From positions 360,001 to 392,000 of the forward strand of contig NZ_JBHSTI010000008.1 of the NCBI RefSeq assembly GCF_042660085.1: 32,000 bases of DNA. The letters are read 5' to 3'. The notes beneath the pieces are model-generated. The model had not been told where the DNA came from. It did no database searches and saw nothing but the letters and a program-made list of their open reading frames with translations. The translations under genes were made by a program, and so were the position numbers. Below, one piece after another: positions 9,201-20,012 of this stretch. The stretch is from Longivirga aurantiaca. GTDB lineage: Bacteria; Actinomycetota; Actinomycetes; S36-B12; CAIYMF01. Each line of letters starts with the position of its first letter. Position 1 is the stretch's first letter.

Positions 9201-9875
9201 TCAGCGGCTCGCGGCGTCGAGGAACGCGAGCACCAGCGGGTGCACGGACCCGCCGTCGAGCGAGGTCATCTGGGGCTGGAACAGCGTGCCCAGGTAGAAC
9301 GGGTGGCCCTCGAGCTCGACCGCTTCGACCCCGGCGTCCGGGGCGAAGGCCGAGAACGTGAGCCCTGCCTCCACGAGCATGTCGCGGTAGCGGAGGTTCA
9401 CGCCGTAGCTGCAGAAGTGGAAGCCGTCGAACGGCTCGAGCCCGCAGATCCCCGCCATCCGTGTGCCGGGCACCGCGGTCACCGGCCGGACCTCGCCCAC
9501 GAGGCTGCAGGCGAGCGCCGCGACCACCACCTGCTCGGCGTCGGGCTCGGTCTCCTGGTGCCCGGCCTCGTGCACGCCGATGTGGTTGCGGGCGAACTCG
9601 AGCACGAGGTGCTGGAACCCGCCGCACGTGCCCAGGGTCGCGAGCCCGTTCTCGCGCCGGTGGCGAAGGACGGCGTGGACGGCGTCCTCGTCGGCGTACG
9701 GCGTGCCCGGCACGGCCCACACGCCGTCGGCGTCGGCCAGCGCGGGGTCGTCGGTCCGCGTGGTCGGCACCCAGGCGAGGGTCGCGTCGGGCGCGAGCCT
9801 GTCGACGAGGACGTCGAGGGCACGGTGGGTCACGAAGGCCGGGTCGCGGTCGCCGAGCAGCGCGATCGAGGTCAC
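9201..9875 (-). CDS. Stand-alone class I glutamine amidotransferase-like protein (CTP synthase C-terminal domain type)
   Basis: The nucleophile motif GTCGGFQ is present. The C-terminal block VELEGHPFYLGTLFQPQ aligns with the CTP synthase block ...HPWFVACQFHPEF. The stop is 1 nt from the convergent DUF3817 stop. Confidence 0.75.
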   Translation of the reverse strand: MTSIALLGDRDPAFVTHRALDVLVDRLAPDATLAWVPTTRTDDPALADADGVWAVPGTPYADEDAVHAVLRHRRENGLATLGTCGGFQHLVLEFARNHIGVHEAGHQETEPDAEQVVVAALACSLVGEVRPVTAVPGTRMAGICGLEPFDGFHFCSYGVNLRYRDMLVEAGLTFSAFAPDAGVEAVELEGHPFYLGTLFQPQMTSLDGGSVHPLVLAFLDAASR

Positions 9876-9894
9876 GAGTCCGCCGTCGGTCGCG

Positions 9895-10365
9895 TCACGT
9901 GCCCGGGTTGACGAGCTGGCAGGCGTCGCCGAAGGCCCGCGCGCTGGAGACGACCTTGGCCTGGTCGGCGAACTCGACGGCCTCGAGCACGGCGTCGGCC
10001 TTCTGGGCGAGGCCGGAGCCGTCGTCGACGTACTCGGCCCGCGCCTGCTCGGCGATGGTCCTCCCTTCGGCCAGCTGCTCCGGAGCGACCTGCCCGATGA
10101 AGCCCGCGGCGAGCCCGAGCACCGTTCCGCACAGCTGGAACGCCGCGATCGCGGGCGGCACCGACGTGGTCGGACCGAGCGTGGGCTCCTCGCTGGCCGT
10201 CTCGGAGGGGGTGTCCGACGCGCTCGGCGATGCCGGTGCGCTCGACGTGGCCGCAGCGGACGACGACCCGGGTGCGGACGACGTGGCGACGGGGTCGGTG
10301 CCGCCGGTGCACGCGGTCACGGTGAGAAGCAGCAGGGCTGCTGCCGCGATGGCTCTCGTGCGCAC
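9895..10365 (-). CDS. Putative lipoprotein
   Basis: GTG at 10365 with GGGAGGA upstream. Signal peptide plus lipobox (LLLLTVTAC), a Ser/Ala/Pro/Thr-rich linker, then a small helical domain with 2 Cys. It is the 3' part of track ORF 9895..10803. Confidence 0.7.
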   Translation of the reverse strand: MRTRAIAAAALLLLTVTACTGGTDPVATSSAPGSSSAAATSSAPASPSASDTPSETASEEPTLGPTTSVPPAIAAFQLCGTVLGLAAGFIGQVAPEQLAEGRTIAEQARAEYVDDGSGLAQKADAVLEAVEFADQAKVVSSARAFGDACQLVNPGT

Positions 10366-11429: not shown

Positions 11430-14078
11430 TCAGGTGGCCACGCCGGCGTCGGCGAGGGCCTTGGCGACGCCGCCGCGTGAGCGCACGCCGAGCTTGCGGT
11501 AGATACGGGTCAGGTGGGTCTCCACGGTCTTCACCGAGAGGAAGACCGTCGAGGCGATCTCGTTGTTGCTCAGGCCCTCCGCCACAGCAAGGGCGATGCG
11601 CAGCTCCTGAGGCGTCAGGCCGACCGTTGCGATCCTGGCGGGCGACGAGAGGCTCCCGCCTGCGGCTGCGAGCTCGCGCTCGGCGCGCTCAGCCCAGGGC
11701 GCAGCGTCGCTCCGGCGGAAGAGCTGCGTCGCCTCGGTCAGGGGTGCACGGGCGTCGGCGGGCCTTCGCGATCGTCGCAGCCACTCGCCCTGGAGGAGGA
11801 GTATCCGTGCGAGCTCCCAGGCGTTCGTGCCGAGGCGCCCGAGCCGCACAGCCTCGTCGAACCGCCGCTCGGTGTCGTCGGTCTGGGCGAGGGCGTGCCC
11901 GAGCTCGACCAGTGCCGCCGCCCGTCGCGACCCCAGGCCGCGGGACCGATGCTCGAGCTCGACGGCGATGCGTTGGGCTTCCCCGGTGCGTCCGAGCCCG
12001 CTGAGCACCTCCACCTTGAGCGCGAGCGACGCGAAGGCCACCCCCCGTGGCCGGGTCGACTGCAGGGCCTCGACGTCCGCCAGCTCGGCCAAGGCCTCCG
12101 CGTTGCGCCCCGATCGCAGGTGCAGGAGCGCGCGGCAGTAGCGGGCCTGGCGGGCCGTGTATCGGAAGTCGTCGATGTCGCATGCAGCCGCGAGCGCCTC
12201 GATCGCGATCTCCGCCTCGATGTCGTCACCTCGGCGCGACTCCACGATCGCGAGCAGCTCGTACACATCCGTGACGAGCCAACCCAGCGAAGGTGCGAGC
12301 GACAGCAGGTTGCGGAGGATGCCGGCCGCCTTGGCGTGCTGGGCGCGGTCCAGGGCTTCCTCTGCGTCGAAGCGATCGGCCAGAGCAGCCCAGCGAGGCT
12401 CTCGGGACCGACGGAAGAGCGAGCATGCGGTGCGTTTGCGGCTTGCCAGCGTTTCGCCGTCCCACGAGGCCTCGTCGAGCCACGCGGGCGCCATCAACCA
12501 GAGGGACAGGTACGGCAACGGCAGCTGCTCGGGGTCGACCTGCTCGCTGGCGACCAGCCCCTGACGCAGCAACGGGAGAGCGCGCTCATTCTGTCCGAGG
12601 AACTGCCACATCCCTCCCGGCATCAGCGAGTCGAGGCCGAGCGACCCTTCAGGGCCCCAGCTCTCGAGCATCTCGGCGGCACGCTGCACGCCGTCGTAGT
12701 CGAGCCGCTGCATGAGGATGTCCCCGTAGACCTCGACGAGCTCTCGTCCCGCCGGTCCGTTGCTGATCCACGTCAGCGACTCCCGGAACAGCCCGGTCTG
12801 CTCCTGGCCCGTCAGGTGCTCCTCGCCCAGCACGATCGCGGCACGTGCTCGTAGCTCCGGGTCGGAGCAGCGCTCGACGACCTCGCGGGCCGCTCGGGCG
12901 GACGAGGCCCGGAACCGGTCGAGCTCGAGGGACAGCACCAGCCGTCGCCAGCGCGCGTCAGGGAGGGGGGACAGGGCTGCCGCCTGCGCGGCGAGGGCCC
13001 CTGCCGCCGCTGTGCCGCGCCTCGCCGCGACGTCGGGGACCATGGCCTCCAGCCCCGCGGCCAGGTCCTCGTCCGGGCCGACTGCTGCGAGGGCGGAATG
13101 CCGCAGCATCAGCTCGGCGTCGTCCAGCTCGCGATGGACCTCGGCCAGCAGCCTGTGCGCGGCACGGCGCTCGGCCTCCGTCGCGGACCAGTGCACCGCA
13201 GCGCGGACAAGAGGGTGGCGGAAGCGGAGCTCGGCGCCCGGGAGCAGCAGCCCAGCATCGACGGCGGGCTCGAGGTCGCGCGGCGAGAGCTCGGCGCGCA
13301 GGAGCGCCCGCGCCAGCACCGTGGTGTCGCCGGAGTCCTCGGAGGAGGCGATCACGAGGGCTCGTCGTGCGGGTGCCGGGAGCGCGTCGACCCCTCGTGC
13401 GTAGTGCGCCGATACCGACCGTCCGACCGGCAGCGTGGGGGGCAGCGGCGCCGCTCCGCTCATCACCTCGGGTGCGAGGAGCGCGGGGGCCTCGACGAGG
13501 GCGAGGGGCACGTCCCCGAGCGAGGCGGCCAGCTCGTACGCGACCTCGGGCGGGGTCGAGGGCGAGACCGTGAGCAAGAGCGCCGCAGCCTCCGCCCGCG
13601 GCAGCGCCTCGACTGCGAGGTGCTCGATCTCGGGCAGGCGCGGCGGGTCATCGATCTCGGGCCGGGCCGCGAGCAGCAGCGCGACCGCGTCGTCGAGGAG
13701 CCGCCGCGCCGCGAAGCGCAGAGCTGCGAGGGATGCCTCGTCGAGCCACTGCACGTCGTCGACGACGAGCGCCAGCGGCTGCAGGGCCGCTGCCTCGCTC
13801 ACCGAGCTGAGCAGCGTCCATGGATCTGCGAGGTTGCCTTCCCCGAGCAGCGGGCGCAGCAGCGACAGGCCAGACCCGGAGATTCCTGACTCGGACTCGA
13901 CCGCGGTGATCCTGAACGTCGTCATGCCGGCTGCGCGGGCCGTCGCCTCGCCGTGGTCGAGCAGGGTCGTCTTGCCGATCCCGGGGAGCCCGACCAGGAG
14001 CAGCGCACCCGCGCGTCCGGAGCGCGCGGTCGCCAGCAGGTCGTCCACGGCCTGCTTCTCGTGCTCCCGTCCCATCAT
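11430..14078 (-). CDS. Large ATP-binding LuxR-family regulator (LAL/MalT-like STAND NTPase, helical-repeat region, C-terminal LuxR HTH)
   Basis: Walker A GLPGIGKTT, Walker B LALVVDDVQWLD, a long helical/TPR-like middle region, and a C-terminal LTPQELRIALAVAEGLSNNEIASTVFLSVKTVETHLTRIYRKLGV. The start is taken as the first ATG of MMGREHEK, using the ORF-track frame. My reading of printed bases 14041-14100 disagreed with the track by 1 nt, so treat the start as +/-1 codon. Confidence 0.88.
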   Translation of the reverse strand: MMGREHEKQAVDDLLATARSGRAGALLLVGLPGIGKTTLLDHGEATARAAGMTTFRITAVESESGISGSGLSLLRPLLGEGNLADPWTLLSSVSEAAALQPLALVVDDVQWLDEASLAALRFAARRLLDDAVALLLAARPEIDDPPRLPEIEHLAVEALPRAEAAALLLTVSPSTPPEVAYELAASLGDVPLALVEAPALLAPEVMSGAAPLPPTLPVGRSVSAHYARGVDALPAPARRALVIASSEDSGDTTVLARALLRAELSPRDLEPAVDAGLLLPGAELRFRHPLVRAAVHWSATEAERRAAHRLLAEVHRELDDAELMLRHSALAAVGPDEDLAAGLEAMVPDVAARRGTAAAGALAAQAAALSPLPDARWRRLVLSLELDRFRASSARAAREVVERCSDPELRARAAIVLGEEHLTGQEQTGLFRESLTWISNGPAGRELVEVYGDILMQRLDYDGVQRAAEMLESWGPEGSLGLDSLMPGGMWQFLGQNERALPLLRQGLVASEQVDPEQLPLPYLSLWLMAPAWLDEASWDGETLASRKRTACSLFRRSREPRWAALADRFDAEEALDRAQHAKAAGILRNLLSLAPSLGWLVTDVYELLAIVESRRGDDIEAEIAIEALAAACDIDDFRYTARQARYCRALLHLRSGRNAEALAELADVEALQSTRPRGVAFASLALKVEVLSGLGRTGEAQRIAVELEHRSRGLGSRRAAALVELGHALAQTDDTERRFDEAVRLGRLGTNAWELARILLLQGEWLRRSRRPADARAPLTEATQLFRRSDAAPWAERAERELAAAGGSLSSPARIATVGLTPQELRIALAVAEGLSNNEIASTVFLSVKTVETHLTRIYRKLGVRSRGGVAKALADAGVAT

Positions 14079-14132
14079 CACCAGCACACCGTCGCACCGC
14101 CGGGGCGTGAGCGGGAGACGTCTGGCGAAGGT

Positions 14133-14156
14133 AGGGGGATTTCCCTGATACCCCCT
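14133..14156. promoter_or_regulatory. Near-palindromic G5/C5 element (AGGGGGAT-ttccctg-ATACCCCCT) in the divergent LAL / repeat-protein intergenic region
   Basis: Read directly. Imperfect inverted repeat about 70 nt upstream of the ATG at 14223. Candidate operator. Confidence 0.3.
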
Positions 14157-14222
14157 CCTCGCCGCCGTCCCTAGCGTTCGAGATGTCGGGAAACGGCCCG
14201 GCACCCGAACCTGGAGGACCCG

Positions 14223-14747
14223 ATGACCACGCAGACGATCTCCGCGATCAGCACCCCGTCCCGTCGCGCCCTCGCGCTCGGCGCCGCCGTATCCCTCACC
14301 GTCGCGGCCCTCCTCATCGGGGCGATCGCCGGCGCAGGTGCCGCGGCCTGGTGGCAGTCCCGCACCGCCGCCGCCGCCACGACGACCACCGCCCTCGTGG
14401 TGCCCCGCACCGCGCTGGACCCCGCGACCCACCACTACGGCGCCCGCGCCGCGCAGTTCGAGGCAGCCCCCGCTCTCGCCACCGCCGCCGCCGCCCCGGT
14501 CGCCGTCGCCCGCCCGGCGCTGGACCCCGCGACCCACCACTACGGCGCCCGGGCGACGCAGCTCGAGGCCGTGCCGGCACTCGCCGCGACGGGCACCGTG
14601 CTGCGCACCCCGGTCGACCCCGAGAGCCGCTTCTACGGCCGCACCCGCCTCGCCCGCACGTCGTCTCCCGACGTGGTGGCGCCGGTCGCTGCCGCTCAGG
14701 TGAGCACCCCCGAGACGCACCTCTACGGGGCGCGCTCGGGGTCCTGA
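14223..14747 (+). CDS. Membrane-anchored hypothetical protein with four P-x-T-H-x-Y-G-A-R-type repeats
   Basis: GGAGGA lies 5 nt upstream of the ATG, and GC3 is high. It has an N-terminal TM helix (aa 16-43) and an Ala/Thr-rich ectodomain. Motifs: ALDPATHHYGAR (aa 64-75 and 99-110), VDPESRFYGR (aa 131-140) and TPETHLYGAR (aa 162-171). The antisense extension of the LAL ORF across this region is Arg/Gly junk. Confidence 0.65.
   Translation: MTTQTISAISTPSRRALALGAAVSLTVAALLIGAIAGAGAAAWWQSRTAAAATTTTALVVPRTALDPATHHYGARAAQFEAAPALATAAAAPVAVARPALDPATHHYGARATQLEAVPALAATGTVLRTPVDPESRFYGRTRLARTSSPDVVAPVAAAQVSTPETHLYGARSGS
14412..14551 (+). repeat. Direct repeat: exact 35-nt copies (14412-14446 and 14517-14551) at a 105-nt period inside the CDS
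   Basis: GCGCTGGACCCCGCGACCCACCACTACGGCGCCCG occurs twice. The flanking parts of each 105-nt unit have diverged. Confidence 0.85.
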
Positions 14748-14764
14748 GCGACTCGACCATCTGC

Positions 14765-14795
14765 GGGAGCCGGCGCCGACGGGGCGCCGGCTCCC
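14765..14795 (+). terminator. Intrinsic terminator hairpin after the repeat-protein gene
   Basis: Perfect 13-bp stem GGGAGCCGGCGCC-gacgg-GGCGCCGGCTCCC, 18 nt after the stop. Confidence 0.7.
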
Positions 14796-14874
14796 GCTCG
14801 TGCGTGCGCGGGCGGCCCGCTGGTGCGGATACGTTGTCTGTCGAAGAGGGGACCCCGTCACGGTCGGAGGACGC

Positions 14875-15645
14875 GTGGGCTCGTCATACGTCCCGCCGCA
14901 GCATGGCGCGTGGGCATTCCTGGCGCTGCCCGTCATGCTGGGGGTGCTCGTCACGCCGTGGACGCCGCTCATCCTGCTGCTCGCCCTCGCCTGGGTCGCG
15001 GTCTACCCGCTGTCGTACGCCGCTTTCGGGCTGGCCCGTGCGCGACGCGCGACCCGCTTCCGCCGGCCGCTCGCGGTCTGGGCGGTCGTCACGCTCGTGC
15101 CGGCGATCGCGCTGGTCGTCGCTCTCCCGTGGCTCGCGTGGGTCGGCGCGGCGTACGCCGTGTTCTTCCTCGTCAACCTCCAGTACGCACGACGGAACGA
15201 CGAGCGCGCGCTGACCAACGACCTGGTGTTCGTGTTCGAGTGCGCCGCGATGGTGCTGGTGACCTGGGCGGTCGGCGTCGGAGAGCAATCGCTCGTGCCG
15301 CCGCCCGTGGTCGACGTTCCGATCGAGGTGTGGGTTCTCGTCGCGGTGACGGCGCTCTCGCTCACGGGGTCGACGCTGCACGTGAAGTCGCTCATCCGGG
15401 AGCGGCGCGACCCGCGGTTCAGTCGCGCCTCGCAGACGTTCGCCGTGCTCTCCGTCGTCGCGGCGGGCGCACTGGCCGTGGCGTGGGGCCTCCCGTCCGG
15501 CTGGTGGCTCGTGGTGCCCTTCGTGCTGCTCGCGATCCGTGCGTTCCTCGTCGGCCGTCGGCCCCGCAAGCCGATGGTCATCGGCCTCGTGGAGCTCGCG
15601 GGCCTCGTCGCCGTCTGGATCGGCGCGCTGCTCGCGAGCATCTGA
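14875..15645 (+). CDS. YwiC-like family membrane protein
   Basis: GTG at 14875 with GGAGGA 4 nt upstream. The N-terminal motif YVPPQHGAWAFLALPVMLG is characteristic of YwiC-like proteins. About 8 TM spans. Confidence 0.7.
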   Translation: MGSSYVPPQHGAWAFLALPVMLGVLVTPWTPLILLLALAWVAVYPLSYAAFGLARARRATRFRRPLAVWAVVTLVPAIALVVALPWLAWVGAAYAVFFLVNLQYARRNDERALTNDLVFVFECAAMVLVTWAVGVGEQSLVPPPVVDVPIEVWVLVAVTALSLTGSTLHVKSLIRERRDPRFSRASQTFAVLSVVAAGALAVAWGLPSGWWLVVPFVLLAIRAFLVGRRPRKPMVIGLVELAGLVAVWIGALLASI

Positions 15646-15703
15646 CGCGCCAGCGGTCCGAACCCGCACGACCGGCAGCAGGTCGCGCTGCCAGACTGCC
15701 GCC

Positions 15704-16367: not shown

Positions 16368-16868
16368 ATGGCCACAACCGAGGACGTGCTGCTCGCGGAC
16401 GAGCGAGCGACGCTCCAGGCGTTCGTCGACGACCAGCGGCGCGAGATCGCGTCGCTGCTCGACGGTGTCTCCGAGGAGGAGGCGCGTCGCAGCCTCGTGC
16501 CGTCGCTCACCACCCTCGCGTCGATCGTGAAGCACTGCGCCTTCGTCGAGAGGGTGTGGTTCCAGGTGGGGCTCGCCGGTCGCACCCGCGCCGGGCTCGG
16601 GCTCCCCGACGACGTCGACGACAGCTTCGTGCTCGACGACGCCGACACCGTCGAGTCGCTGCTGGCGGACTACGCCGAGGCATGTGCGGAGTCGGACCGC
16701 ATCGCCTCGGGCCACAGCCTCGACGACCTCGTGCTGCACAACCGCCGCAGCCCGCTCACGCTCCGCTGGGTCTACGCGCACATGATCCGCGAGCTCGCCC
16801 GGCATGCCGGTCACGGCGACATCCTGCGCGAGCAGATCGAGGCTGCCCGCGGTCGGCAGGACCCGTGA
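16368..16868 (+). CDS. DinB-family protein (DUF664 / mycothiol-dependent transferase-like)
   Basis: Four-helix-bundle DinB pattern with metal-ligand histidines (IVKHCAFVE ... YAHMIRELARHAGHGDILRE). Confidence 0.8.
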   Translation: MATTEDVLLADERATLQAFVDDQRREIASLLDGVSEEEARRSLVPSLTTLASIVKHCAFVERVWFQVGLAGRTRAGLGLPDDVDDSFVLDDADTVESLLADYAEACAESDRIASGHSLDDLVLHNRRSPLTLRWVYAHMIRELARHAGHGDILREQIEAARGRQDP

Positions 16869-17587
16869 CCGAGCAGAGCGCCGGACCGCTGCCTGCAGTT
16901 CTCGCCGGGGCAGCCATCGACGACGAGGTGCACGCGCTGGTGCCCGGCTACCGCGCCCTGCTGATCGCGGCCACCGGCGTGCGGGGCGGTCCCAGCGACG
17001 AGCGCAGCGACGCCGCGCTGCGCAGCGCCGAGGGCTCGGCGCGGGCCCGTCTCGACGGGGGAGCGCCCGAGTCGCTTCCCGAGATCGCGGCGTGGCGCGA
17101 CGCATTCCTCGCGTTCGGCGTGAAGCCCCGGCAGGCGCGCAGCAGCGTCGAGGCCCTCGTACGCCGGGTCGACGCCGGGCTCCCGCGCATCGACCGGCTC
17201 ACCGATCTCTACAACGCCGTCTCGGTGGAGCACCTCATCCCGATCGGTGGCGAGAACCTCGCCCGCTACGCCGGGCCGCCGCGACTCGTGCGCGCGGTCG
17301 GTGACGAGCCGTTCGACACCGTCGCCGACGGCGAGCTCGTCACGGTGAGCGCGGACCCGGGCGAGGTCCTGTGGCGCGACGACCTCGGCGCCACGTGCCG
17401 GCGCTGGAACTGGCGGCAGTGCGTCCGCACCCGCCTGGACCCGACGACGACCGACGTCCTGTTCATCCTCGACGGGCTCGACCCGCTCGACGCCGGCCGG
17501 CTGCACGCGGCGGGCGAGGCGCTCGTCGAGCACCTGCGCGCCGACGCCCCCGCCGTGGAGGTGTCATGGCGCCTCCTCGACTCGTGA
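16865..17587 (+). CDS. Stand-alone B3/B4 domain protein (related to the PheRS beta-subunit editing domain)
   Basis: GTG at 16865 overlaps the DinB stop (GTGA). PEIAAWRDAFLAFGVKPRQARSSVEALVRR ... DLYNAVSVEHLIPIGGENL is typical of free-standing B3_4 proteins. Confidence 0.72.
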   Translation: MTEQSAGPLPAVLAGAAIDDEVHALVPGYRALLIAATGVRGGPSDERSDAALRSAEGSARARLDGGAPESLPEIAAWRDAFLAFGVKPRQARSSVEALVRRVDAGLPRIDRLTDLYNAVSVEHLIPIGGENLARYAGPPRLVRAVGDEPFDTVADGELVTVSADPGEVLWRDDLGATCRRWNWRQCVRTRLDPTTTDVLFILDGLDPLDAGRLHAAGEALVEHLRADAPAVEVSWRLLDS

Positions 17588-17618: not shown

Positions 17619-17942
17619 ATGATCTGCTGCCAGTTCATCTTCATGCCCGGCCAGTACGACGACGAGTTCCATCGGCTCGACGGCGAGATCGAGGCCTTCG
17701 CGCGCAGCCTGCCGGGGTTCGATCGGGTGGAGACCTGGCAGTCGGCCGACGGCCGCACCGTGAATGCGACGTACTACTTCGCGAACCGCGCGGCGCTCGC
17801 CGAGCTCTCCTCGTTCCCGCTGCACCTCGAGGCGAAGGGCAAGGTCGCCCGCTGGTCCGACGGCTACCGCATCGTCGCGAGCGAGGTCGACGGCCTGGCC
17901 GCGATGGGGCTCAGCCCGGGCGGTCGGTGGCGCTGCGAGTGA
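17619..17942 (+). CDS. ABM (antibiotic biosynthesis monooxygenase-like, ferredoxin-fold) family protein
   Basis: GGAGG at 17609-17613 is 5-6 nt before the ATG at 17619. FMPGQYDDEF...LPGFDRVETWQSADGRTVNATYYFANRAALAELSSFPLHLEAK fits the ABM/Dabb pattern. Confidence 0.65.
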   Translation: MICCQFIFMPGQYDDEFHRLDGEIEAFARSLPGFDRVETWQSADGRTVNATYYFANRAALAELSSFPLHLEAKGKVARWSDGYRIVASEVDGLAAMGLSPGGRWRCE

Positions 17943-19788
17943 CGTGCACGATGTCGAACAGCGCGAAGTTCCAGCCCAGCCACGGGATCGGGAATCGGGC
18001 GCGGCGGATGTGGTCGCCGGCGAACTCCGTCTCGATCCATGCCCGCATCGCGGGGTAGTGGTTGCGATGGTCGATGGCGACGGTGCGCTCGTGGTCCTGG
18101 CCGAGCTTGCGCGCCTTGGGCACCATGACGATCCGACGTAGCAGCCGGAGCAGCATGCCGGGTTCCATGGGCAGGTAGATCGTGATCGTGCCGCCCGGTC
18201 GTGTCACCCGCCTCCACTCGGAGAGCGCCCGGTGCGGATGGTGCAGGTGGGCCAGGAGGCAGGTCGCGATGACGCGGTCGAACGAGGCGTTGTCGAGCCC
18301 GCCGAGGTCCTCGGCGTCGAGCCGGGCGCGCACGACCGAACCGCCTGGCTCGACGCGGCGTACGGCGTCTCCGGCAGGCACCAGCAGGTCGGTCTCCAGG
18401 TAGGAGTCGAAGTCCCGCACGTACGCGGCGTGCTGCCCGGCGCCGGCGCCGAGCTCCAGCACCCGTCCCGAGGAGCTCGCCCTGAACGGGCGCTCCATGA
18501 GCCGGTGCACCCAGTCGGAGACGAAGCCGACGGCGCCGGTGTACATCACGGACTCGTACGCCTCGCCGTAGTAGCGGTCGAGTGAGCGCGACAGGCGCCG
18601 GTCGGTGGCGGCCGAGGCCTGCCAGACAAGGACAAGGAGCCAGCCGAGCAGCACCACGTAGAGCATCGTGTAGCGGTCGGGCAACGGTGCGGGCACCCGC
18701 GCCGGCAGCATGAGCAGCACCGTGATCAGAGTGGCGCCGGCCAGCCGCACCCGATGCCGGCCGTCGCCCACAAGGGCCAGAAGCGCGGTGACCACCCACA
18801 CTGCGTGGTGGTGCCAGGAGATAGGGGTGACCAGCACGCTCGCGAGCCCGAGGATGCCCACGGCCGCCACAGGCTGCTGCACCCGCACTGCGCGCGAGGC
18901 GCCGGTCAGCCCGAGTGCGAGTGTCAGCGCGATCAGGACGAGCCACAGCGTGCTGGCGGCTGGCGACGGCAGGCCGTCGACCAGCCCTCGCCACGACTGG
19001 TTCATGACGGAGTCGCCGAACCCGTCGATCTGCTCGTTCGTGCGGAACAGCACGAGTCGCTCGACGTATGTCGCGGTGTCGCCCCGCAGGACAACAGCAG
19101 CCAGCAGCCAGCAGCCGGCCGTCGTCGCGAGAGCTGTGACCGCCGCGCGGTACTGGCGCGTGGCGAGCCAGTGCAGCACGAAGATGCCAGGGGTCAGCTT
19201 CACTGCCGTCGCGATGCCGACCAGGACTCCTTGCGCGCGGGGGAGGCGGCGCCCGACCACGAGGTAGTCGATGCAGCAGCCGAGCATCAGGAGCAGTCCG
19301 AGCTGTCCCAGAGCCAGGACCTCGGCGACGGGGGTGACGGTCAGCGCGACGAGGGTGAGCCCGACCACGAGGAGTGCACGCCCGAAGGCGTCCGGGGCTC
19401 GGCGCAGCAGCGGCTGTCCCGTGAGCAGGATGACGAGGGCGAGGGCGCCGGCGTTCACCACGTACGAGAGCGGGAAGAGGATCTCGAGCGGTGCCATCGT
19501 GAGCGGCGTCATGACCAGACCGCCGAAGGGCGGGTAGGTCCAGTAGCCCGGCGCGAACTTGACGTCGTACAACGGCTGCCCGGAGGAGATGACCTCGCCC
19601 GCTTGGCGGTAGACGGAGAGGTCGGACGCATCCCAGGTGATGAAGGCCCAAGCGGTGTACCACTGCATCAGGGCCGCGATGCTGGCGGCCGCGGTCAGGA
19701 CGAGGATCACGCTGACGACGAGGAGCTTCGAGTCGCGGGCATCCTCGGCGCGGACGGCAGGCGTCTGCTGTACCCCGCTGAGAGTCAT
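17911..19788 (-). CDS. Fusion protein: N-terminal GT87/DUF2029 polytopic (GT-C type) glycosyl/mannosyltransferase, C-terminal class I SAM-dependent methyltransferase
   Basis: ATG at 19788 (MTLSGV...). About 400 aa with at least 10 TM spans carry DUF2029 hallmarks (WDASDLSVYRQAG, YPPFGGL, AVKLTPGIF). The last ~229 aa (about 17914-18600) carry SAM motif I VLELGAGAG and the downstream FDRVIATCLLAHL...RPGGTITIY. Confidence 0.8.
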   Translation of the reverse strand: MTLSGVQQTPAVRAEDARDSKLLVVSVILVLTAAASIAALMQWYTAWAFITWDASDLSVYRQAGEVISSGQPLYDVKFAPGYWTYPPFGGLVMTPLTMAPLEILFPLSYVVNAGALALVILLTGQPLLRRAPDAFGRALLVVGLTLVALTVTPVAEVLALGQLGLLLMLGCCIDYLVVGRRLPRAQGVLVGIATAVKLTPGIFVLHWLATRQYRAAVTALATTAGCWLLAAVVLRGDTATYVERLVLFRTNEQIDGFGDSVMNQSWRGLVDGLPSPAASTLWLVLIALTLALGLTGASRAVRVQQPVAAVGILGLASVLVTPISWHHHAVWVVTALLALVGDGRHRVRLAGATLITVLLMLPARVPAPLPDRYTMLYVVLLGWLLVLVWQASAATDRRLSRSLDRYYGEAYESVMYTGAVGFVSDWVHRLMERPFRASSSGRVLELGAGAGQHAAYVRDFDSYLETDLLVPAGDAVRRVEPGGSVVRARLDAEDLGGLDNASFDRVIATCLLAHLHHPHRALSEWRRVTRPGGTITIYLPMEPGMLLRLLRRIVMVPKARKLGQDHERTVAIDHRNHYPAMRAWIETEFAGDHIRRARFPIPWLGWNFALFDIVHVTRSATDRPG

Positions 19789-20012
19789 GCCGTCCTTCGT
19801 CCGCCGCCCGATGGTCACAGGATGTAGTGGGGCGGGTGGTCGCTTCGTCGGCCGAACGGCTGATTCGTCGCCGCATGAAGGCGATCCCCGCACACCCCGG
19901 GCACATCGCGGCGCGTGACGAGCACCGGATGGCCCAGCGAACGGCAGAGGCTTGCCCTCGACCGTTCAGTGGACCGGGGGCGCCCGAGCGTGCGCTGGGT
20001 GAGGATGGGGAG

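Follow-up and report, generated by a model that had tools for sequence, protein, structure and literature searches.

Regulators of the LAL/STAND type with a LuxR output domain occur by the thousand in actinomycete genomes, and to our knowledge the ligand and the direct targets of almost all of them are unknown. In Streptomyces, the STAND regulator AfsR activates an adjacent gene for a small repeat protein, AfsS. At pherotype loci, the sensor and part of a small gene are variable and the output domain is conserved. Tandemly duplicated pheromone propeptides were found in Rap-Phr systems (PMC11343458), and STAND proteins paired with genes for small membrane effectors were described in Actinobacteria (Dyrka et al., bioRxiv 10.1101/2020.01.06.895854). 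Here, a two-gene locus of Longivirga aurantiaca is analyzed, in which a LAL/STAND regulator of 882 amino acids (aa) is divergent from a gene for a 174-aa tandem-motif protein. The locus lies in a stretch of 32,000 nucleotides (nt), herein referred to as the window (NZ_JBHSTI010000008.1, positions 360,001–392,000), and both products are identical to Longivirga aurantiaca proteins. The two genes appear to form a cassette that is hypervariable among otherwise nearly identical genomes, and we tentatively read this cassette as a recognition locus.

A hypervariable allelic cassette

The relatives of the window are all metagenomic contigs (L-numbered loci below). The extent of the cassette was determined by sliding-window identity to four of them (L006, L001, L002, and L005) together with BLAST segments. 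The hypervariable part covers approximately 3 kb (11560–14620): it takes in the LAL gene except for its helix-turn-helix (HTH), crosses the intergenic region, and reaches into the small gene over its first ~134 codons. This feature was missed by the earlier, sequence-only reading of the same DNA. In L006, the left flank is 98.3% identical to the window at the nt level over 6 kb, and EamA, SURF1, and two other flank proteins are 99.2–99.7% identical at the aa level. The LAL of this contig, in contrast, is 53% identical to that of the window, with 54–73% identity in the nucleoside triphosphatase (NTPase) arm, 22–34% in residues 437–730, and 100% in the HTH. The same allele class was found in L001, a contig from another sample (93.5% identical to L006). 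Compared to the window, L001 demonstrates 48–91% identity up to ~14620 and then 95–100% identity from the final 40 codons of the small gene through the hairpin that follows; its LysE-side flank is 94.7% identical to the window. Among the other alleles, the LAL of L005 is 89% identical to that of the window and the LALs of L002–L004 are 81% identical. L007 belongs to a different species, having flanks with 77–89% aa identity, a LAL with 48% identity, and a small protein with ~30% identity.

From these comparisons, one unit, made up of the first two-thirds of the small gene, the control region, and the LAL up to and including its sensor, is exchanged or diversified together. What stays the same in the cassette is the HTH, the -10 element, the operator block, and the copies of the motif near the C-terminus. 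A sensor side that varies next to such fixed elements suggests that the locus serves recognition or signalling and is shaped by diversifying selection or by recombination. We know of no description of a LAL sensor that is this variable within near-identical genomes.

In the segment at 14625–14800, which holds the 3′ end of the small gene and the hairpin, the high identity to L001 extends to synonymous sites, with a synonymous divergence (dS) of only 0.07 vs. 0.73 in the 5′ part. Most simply, this would be a recombination breakpoint inside the small gene, and an RNA-level constraint on the 3′ end may be the alternative. Additionally, an extra tandem LAL paralogue was found in L005 (3142–3600), located directly downstream of the first LAL with overlapping stop and start codons. 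Over its N-terminal 150 aa, it is 66–69% identical to each of the allele classes. Being equally distant from all the alleles, it does not account for the alternative allele ("allele B"), and an origin of that allele by differential loss of tandem paralogues was rejected.

The regulator gene is located on the minus strand (11430–14078), and the 882-aa STAND ATPase-LuxR architecture read from the sequence was recovered by Pfam. Matches were found to AAA_16 (E 4.1e-13, 50.6 bits vs. a cut-off of 32.6), to AAA_22, and to GerE (E 9.1e-15, 54.5 bits vs. a cut-off of 23.5). The NTPase core (AAA_16, residues 3–127; 13698–14072, minus strand) contains the Walker A sequence GLPGIGKT and the Walker B sequence LVVDD in translation. 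The most variable part, namely residues ~437–730 (11889–12770, minus strand), is the presumed sensor domain; no significant Pfam TPR match was found in the middle region of the window LAL, and faint TPR_12 matches were found only in the orthologues P0012 and P0014. The GerE/LuxR HTH (residues 821–869; 11472–11618, minus strand) is kept among the alleles, being fully identical in L005 as in L006 and 90% identical in L002 and L007. Its sequence matches in the PDB are the DNA-binding domains of VraR, DosR, and ComA. The identical NCBI protein is named [quoted passage not shown] On the strength of its NTPase and HTH, this regulator joins the LAL/MalT-type STAND family as a new member. A scan of GTDB representatives with the LAL alignment yielded, among the matches listed, only generic LALs with 30–41% identity, and Longivirga itself was not among them.

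Every member of the small-protein family is divergent from an orthologous LAL (48–89% identical), and the cassette occupies the same site in the relatives, between the EamA side and LysE. Distant LAL orthologues (no more than 46% identity; L008, L009, and L012) have other neighbours and no such small gene. A crude scan of the upstream divergent open reading frames (ORFs) in 80 generic LAL loci revealed no general pairing with small transmembrane (TM) repeat proteins. The two-gene cassette thus appears to be restricted to Longivirga and close relatives (Sporichthyaceae), and its conserved pairing would fit control of the small gene by the LAL. Because searches in viral contigs, phage records, and plasmid records all returned no cassette, it is not located on mobile elements within the collections searched.

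The gene downstream of the small gene (14875–15645, plus strand) encodes a polytopic membrane protein and is a clear member of the YwiC-like family, as had been proposed (PF14256, E 2e-30, 106.1 bits vs. a cut-off of 25). Its ORF is open from 14800, and the likely start is the GTG at 14875, preceded by GGAGGA. The suggested co-occurrence of the small gene with both of its neighbours stood for the LAL, which is kept in every relative, but failed for YwiC. In L001, L004, L007, and L093, the small gene runs straight to LysE without YwiC; the 866-nt ywiC segment of the window (14815–15680) is replaced by 32 nt in L001, and in L002 a ywiC-like 3′ end was found on the far side of the LAL. Being absent or relocated in all the relatives examined, YwiC is neither a conserved partner nor a part of the cassette. 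Rearrangements seem to concentrate at the junction that follows the hairpin. In L003 (2653–2827) and L004 (855–1037), an identical 138-aa small protein (P0003) is followed by different DNA after the terminator, and only L004 reaches LysE.

Control region and product of the small gene

The shared control region between the two genes is exactly 144 nt long (14079–14222), as originally counted. It contains a conserved operator-like block, AAGGTAGGGGGATTTCCCTGA, which is a putative LAL site (14128–14148, plus strand) and includes the short palindrome GGGA-T(T)-TCCC. The pattern AAGGTnGnGGGnTTyCCCTGA is common to all seven alleles from both clades and always stands at a fixed distance of 23 nt from the -10 element. 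The block occurs once in the 32-kb window, with 0.02 occurrences expected by chance. The -10-like element of the small gene is the hexamer TAGCGT (14172–14177, plus strand), which is of the TAnnnT type and is invariant as TA[GA]CGT in seven of seven alleles. No -35 element conserved at proper spacing was found upstream of this hexamer in the seven alleles, which led to rejection of an ECF-type or sigma-70 -35 assignment, and no match was found in the control region by an E. coli-type promoter scan. The small gene has its own Shine-Dalgarno sequence, GGAGGA (14212–14217, plus strand), located 5 nt before the ATG at 14223; both this sequence and the start codon are kept among the seven alleles. 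Because two invariant blocks are held at a fixed spacing and the HTH is 90–100% conserved, the operator-like block may be read as the LAL operator, probably overlapping the -35 position of an activator-dependent promoter of the small gene.

Downstream of the small-gene stop codon, the perfect terminator hairpin noted earlier was found, but its stem has 15 bp rather than 13 bp (14763–14777/14783–14797, plus strand; 5-nt loop), and it is not followed by a U-tract, so that a canonical intrinsic-terminator scan finds nothing. Such tail-less hairpins are common 3′ ends in high-GC actinomycetes. The folding energy is -48.2 kcal/mol (z = -3.6), and the hairpin is kept in both clades with six compensatory base pairs, which argues that the small gene is a self-contained monocistronic transcription unit, as the sequence-only reading had held. 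No Rfam match was found in 13900–15000.

The small ORF (14223–14747, plus strand; protein P0001) is judged to be a real gene, because its GC content at the third codon position (GC3) is 0.94, indels among homologues are in frame, and the motif cores are conserved at 83–90%. The GC content by codon position is 0.73/0.68/0.94, and the overlapping antisense and +1 ORFs show non-coding patterns. All homologue indels preserve the frame, including one of 9 nt and one of a whole 105-nt repeat, and the differences between homologues are commonest at the third codon position. The identity among homologues falls from the motif cores to 68–73% in the spacers and to 39–54% in the N-terminus and TM segment. 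Thus, both a conserved frame and a conserved motif, on which the earlier proposal depended, were found.

The predicted protein has, as expected, one TM-type helix at the N-terminus. A single hydrophobic segment (residues 16–44; 14268–14354, plus strand; Kyte-Doolittle maximum 2.36) may be a signal anchor or a long signal peptide, and AlphaFold2 predicts a helix for residues 14–52 (pLDDT up to 84). The rest of the protein, an Ala/Pro/Thr-rich tail, has pLDDT <50 and no secondary structure and is predicted to be disordered. Before a conserved WW, small residues occupy the -3 and -1 positions in the homologues (AAA|WW, SAS|WW, and AGS|WW). Together with the N-side arginines and the Thr/Ala/Pro-rich linker, these residues weakly suggest that the protein is exported or anchored N-in/C-out. 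The term "ectodomain" used for the repeat region in the sequence-only reading is an assumption; the flanking charges favour N-in/C-out only weakly. Tat export, prompted by the sequence SRRALAL, was rejected, since P0002 has no twin arginine.

Four motif copies are present: DPATHHYGAR in copy 1 (residues 66–75; 14418–14447) and again in copy 2 (residues 101–110; 14523–14552), the variant DPESRFYGRT in copy 3 (residues 132–141; 14616–14645), and TPETHLYGAR in copy 4 (residues 162–171; 14706–14735), all on the plus strand. The count of four claimed from the sequence is therefore correct, but the exact P-x-T-H-x-Y-G-A-R motif is found in only three of them, copy 3 deviating. The spacing of 32–35 aa also required correction: the motif tyrosines lie at residues 72, 107, 138, and 168, that is, 35, 31, and 30 aa apart. 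The last copy indeed ends three residues from the C-terminus, being followed directly by SGS. Copies 1 and 2 are included in a 105-nt tandem duplication (14365–14469 and 14470–14574, plus strand) with 75% identity between the two units. The motif array is far beyond chance: the P-x-[TS]-[HR]-x-Y-G pattern was observed four times, at least two copies were found in none of 200,000 composition-preserving shuffles, and in 86 unrelated actinobacterial loci, translated in six frames, no tandem motif was found.

The family includes approximately eight sequences in two clades and is an orphan among the billions of proteins searched. In a word-indexed search of 5.8 billion proteins, only P0001 itself and P0002 (73% identity) were found. 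A repeat-unit search of the kind proposed earlier was run exhaustively, with a hidden Markov model (HMM) of 34 aa, against 1.84 billion representatives and returned only this family, adding P0003. This protein has 138 aa and three motif copies, with a single unit in place of the 105-nt duplication of P0001. Other matches to the repeat-unit HMM have unrelated architectures and were rejected as resembling the motif by chance: WHYGARSG in a eukaryotic repeat of the ankyrin-like kind, CDPATHAYGAC in a Cys-rich repeat of the myxobacterial type, and a fragment of low complexity. The second clade (P0127–P0129), ~30% identical to the window protein, was reached by following LAL orthologues and by word-indexed searches. 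Its members are collinear with the window protein, share the N-terminal helix, and have four elements: GLDPETHAYGAR, PREAHFRSGELR, LLDPEAHHLGR, and xPxFGR near the C-terminus. With the small-protein alignment, no relatives were found among 121 pattern matches in GTDB representatives, and 600 pattern matches in JGI metagenome contigs likewise included none.

Across the family, three to four copies have the form (D)P-x-[TS]-H-x-Y-G-x-R, and the invariant core is (D)P-x4-[Y/F]-G-x-R. The His is replaced in several copies and alleles (ESRF, ENRF, or EQRY in copy 3; ATYH in P0003; AALRYGAR and AALRCGAR in L005), and the Tyr is replaced by Cys or Leu in some copies. In both clades, the last copy is located at the extreme C-terminus and most copies are bracketed by Arg. 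As had been supposed for the motif, no characterized family was found to contain it: searches in Pfam, NCBIfam, PADLOC, PHROGs, and PDB profiles gave no match for the small protein, which belongs to no described family. In UniRef, P0001 is named "ABC transporter permease," and in NCBI it is "hypothetical"; the transporter name has no support from the family searches.

Proposed mechanism and alternative explanations

In the proposed mechanism, the LAL/STAND factor, composed of an NTPase, a presumably helical sensor, and a C-terminal LuxR HTH, most likely binds the G-rich palindromic block at 14128–14148. Binding 23 nt upstream of TAGCGT, in a promoter without a -35 element, would activate the small gene once the sensor is triggered. 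The small gene would be transcribed alone, with the conserved hairpin closing the transcript. Its product is probably a single-pass protein, signal-anchored or signal-peptide-bearing, in N-in/C-out orientation. The disordered Ala/Pro/Thr-rich tail would display three to four copies of (D)P-x-[TS]-H-x-[YF]-G-x-R, whose most likely role is that of multivalent docking or processing sites at the cell envelope. This general model, a LAL-activated and probably exported motif-display protein in a diversifying recognition locus, is offered tentatively and with somewhat less than even confidence.

Several points weigh against this model. Binding of the LAL to 14128–14148 is deduced from conservation and position, and the docking role of the motif is a proposal. 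The orientation is uncertain, as the TM segment has a flanking charge of ~+2 N-terminally vs. ~+1 C-terminally, and in some homologues the two sides are in balance. The AlphaFold2 prediction of disorder was built on a shallow alignment of three sequences, and the ratio of nonsynonymous to synonymous divergence (dN/dS) in the small gene, ~0.55–0.6, indicates only moderate constraint. Since the relatives are metagenomic, the mosaic could in principle be an assembly artefact. A chimera is nevertheless unlikely, because one allele class recurs in two samples, adjoining a high-identity flank on one side in L006 and on the other side in L001, and because the identity falls gradually.

The same arrangement could represent a peptide-pheromone cassette, in which an exported pro-peptide is cut at the Arg-flanked units, re-imported, and sensed by the LAL sensor, with autoinduction of the gene. 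By analogy, a cytoplasmic receptor-type regulator adjoins a small gene with an export-type N-terminus, the repeated Arg-bracketed motif reaches the C-terminus in both clades, and tandem propeptides have the Rap-Phr precedent (PMC11343458). Moreover, the variable part comprises the sensor and part of the small gene, with a conserved output domain. However, the motif is nearly unchanged between the most divergent LAL alleles; because the window protein and P0002 have the same copy 1, despite sensors only 22–34% identical, there is no sign of signal-receptor co-diversification. In addition, the LAL is not homologous to the RRNPP receptors (Rap/NprR/PlcR/PrgX/Rgg), Pfam and NCBIfam giving only AAA_16/AAA_22 and the LuxR-type HTH, and no protease or Opp importer was found near the cassette by Pfam annotation of the window neighbours. 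The protein exceeds typical propeptides in size, having 174 aa and a hydrophobic segment of 29 residues, and an Arg is also present inside copy 3. We know of no precedent for a cassette of this kind in Actinomycetota and consider the pheromone explanation unlikely. An actinobacterial system of "pherotypes," in which a LAL/STAND regulator serves peptide signalling or kin recognition and the small protein is an exported multi-copy pro-peptide, is decidedly unlikely. If it were true, the conserved (D)PxxHxYGxR units would be processing or recognition sites or signals, the product would be read by the LAL sensor, leading to autoinduction of the gene, and the allele classes within one species would be mutually non-responsive groups. 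Equally low is the probability that the repeats are cytoplasmic (N-out/C-in) and that the small protein is a membrane-tethered feedback partner, the motifs docking into the helical-repeat sensor to sequester or modulate the LAL. MalT offers the analogy here, as it is held inactive by MalK, MalY, or Aes, and short linear peptides are the typical ligands of TPR-like sensors. The weak charge bias across the TM segment is compatible with a C-in orientation, and the regulator and the small gene are co-inherited and co-vary as one cassette. The juxtamembrane linker and the small -3/-1 residues, in contrast, look like those of an exported protein, the sensor changes when the motif does not, and the TPR assignment of the sensor depends on faint Pfam matches in orthologues only.

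The extreme hypervariability of the sensor in a conserved background might instead be that of an NLR-like defence or allorecognition system, where a STAND sensor detects an invader or a non-self cue and switches on a membrane effector that damages or alters the envelope. The tandem LAL paralogue of L005 suggests birth-and-death dynamics, and gene pairs of STAND proteins and small membrane effectors exist in Actinobacteria (Dyrka et al., bioRxiv 10.1101/2020.01.06.895854). Such a system is nevertheless a long shot: in PADLOC, only the generic HTH of the LAL is matched, by a CARF3-associated model, and the small protein has no match; the locus is absent from the phage, plasmid, and viral collections and occupies a fixed, vertically inherited core-genome site. 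The amyloid-signalling pairing that defines such systems also fails, since the LAL begins directly with the NTPase and a regular-expression search found the small-protein motif in none of the seven LAL alleles, and the output is a transcription factor rather than an enzyme effector. A multi-core precursor of a ribosomally synthesized and post-translationally modified peptide (RiPP), with YG-containing cores modified by enzymes encoded elsewhere, would explain the short repeated motif, its conserved Tyr/Gly, and its C-terminal copy. This idea, which the sequence-only reading had called weak, is very improbable: in the 14 kb to each side, Pfam annotation revealed no radical S-adenosylmethionine enzyme (rSAM), P450, YcaO, or lanthipeptide synthetase and also no peptidase or dedicated transporter, the loci of the relatives contain no tailoring enzyme, peptidase, or transporter either, and a TM-type N-terminus is atypical for a leader peptide. 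Metal binding by His/Tyr repeats, for example in copper or nickel buffering at the envelope, had also been suggested, with His-x-Tyr present in three of the four window copies and His in copies 1–3 of the second clade. It lost ground with the replacements of His (ESRF, ENRF, EQRY, AALRYGAR, AALRCGAR, and ATYH) and, in places, of Tyr; no metal transporter or metalloregulator was found next to the cassette by Pfam annotation of the window neighbours, and this role is hardly credible. Finally, the conserved sequence could be non-coding or coding in another frame, since high-GC genomes yield long chance ORFs, the GC content at codon position 2 is unusually high (0.68), and dN/dS is ~0.6. This is almost certainly wrong, given a GC3 of 0.94 in this frame only, the in-frame indels (a whole-repeat deletion among them), a collinear homologue with 30% identity at the same locus in the second clade, the conserved Shine-Dalgarno sequence and start codon, and the excess of third-position differences.

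The regulon of the window LAL appears to be reduced to one conserved neighbour gene with a conserved operator-like site. The alleles provide a natural series, with sensors 22–34% identical in otherwise ~99% identical genomes, in which specificity is testable by allele swaps. If the small repeat protein is a processed signal or a surface recognition tag, the cassette would represent a new type of cell-cell recognition module in Actinomycetota. Otherwise, the locus would still provide an orphan family with clear limits and a defined short linear motif, as well as a case in which a bacterial transcription factor has diversified in an NLR-like manner.

Genomic setting and comparison with known systems

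The GC content is ~72% across the whole window, and the host is a high-GC actinomycete of the Sporichthyaceae (Actinomycetota). On one side of the cassette, the window contains genes for threonine dehydratase, an ABC-2 transporter, GreA, a PIG-L deacetylase, EcsC, SURF1, a glutamine-amidotransferase-like protein, and an EamA transporter. Past the small gene and ywiC, genes were found for LysE, a mycothiol S-transferase (MST), a B3/4-domain protein, a GT87-methyltransferase, a DUF255 thioredoxin, UPP synthase, PhoH, fumarase, and an OYE reductase. This neighbourhood has ordinary core and housekeeping functions and contains no machinery for biosynthesis or RiPPs. The generalization that LALs usually control specialized-metabolite loci, invoked in the sequence-only reading, does not apply here.

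Three other features of the window were observed. The ORFs for the MST/DinB protein (16368–16868) and the B3/4-domain protein (16556–17587) overlap out of frame. A single fused gene for a 423-aa MST+B3_4 protein was found in L007, and MST alone was found in L093; the overlap may reflect a frameshift, gene fusion or fission, or an error in sequencing. The gene at 17911–19893 (minus strand) encodes a 660-aa GT87 glycosyltransferase fused to a class I SAM methyltransferase domain, and the GT87 gene of L093 encodes 414 aa with no methyltransferase match. For a 371-aa ORF at 9201–10316 (minus strand), the C-terminal 220 residues gave a match in NCBIfam to "CTP synthase C-terminal region-related (seleno)protein" (1e-65, below the model cut-off), and the N-terminal 150 residues have no assignment.

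In the literature on LAL/STAND sensors and on YwiC, no work specific to this pairing of a LAL and a small gene was found. The window regulator shares with the LAL/MalT-type regulators (MalT, PikD, GdmRI/II, and Rv0890c-like) a length of ~880 aa, an N-terminal AAA_16, a long, presumably helical middle part, a C-terminal GerE HTH, and, probably, action on a neighbouring promoter. In contrast to them, it is not part of a cluster for sugar uptake or biosynthesis, a single orphan small gene is the one partner conserved with it, and its sensor and NTPase are allelically hypervariable in near-identical genomes. Like the BASS NLR/Bell pairs of Actinobacteria, the cassette combines a STAND protein having a variable sensor with a small, membrane-targeting protein having a short C-terminal motif (Dyrka et al., 2020, bioRxiv 10.1101/2020.01.06.895854). 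Unlike in those pairs, the N-terminal motif shared by the NLR is absent, the LAL ends in an HTH, and the Pro/Arg-containing motif in a disordered Ala/Pro-rich context does not resemble amyloid-forming motifs.

With the RRNPP(A) and pherotype pairs (Rap-Phr, PlcR-PapR, Rgg-SHP, ComQXP, and Agr), the cassette has in common that a cytoplasmic sensor-regulator adjoins a small gene whose product has an N-terminus of the export type, that candidate peptide units are repeated, similar to the tandem Phr propeptides (PMC11343458), and that the sensor is polymorphic and the output conserved. The differences are that the receptor is a STAND/LAL protein and not a TPR protein, that the host is an actinomycete, that the small protein is larger, and that the motif does not co-vary with the sensor. 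As in AfsR-AfsS, a STAND ATPase regulator stands beside a small protein with three to four copies of a short motif, its presumed direct target. AfsR, however, binds DNA through an N-terminal SARP, whereas the window LAL would use its C-terminal LuxR HTH; AfsS is cytoplasmic, has 63 aa, no hydrophobic segment, and an unrelated motif, and no sequence similarity between it and the window protein was found in the family and HMM searches. By analogy, AfsR-AfsS and the RRNPP/pherotype cassettes may be regarded as the nearest functional counterparts of this locus, in neither case as a matter of membership.

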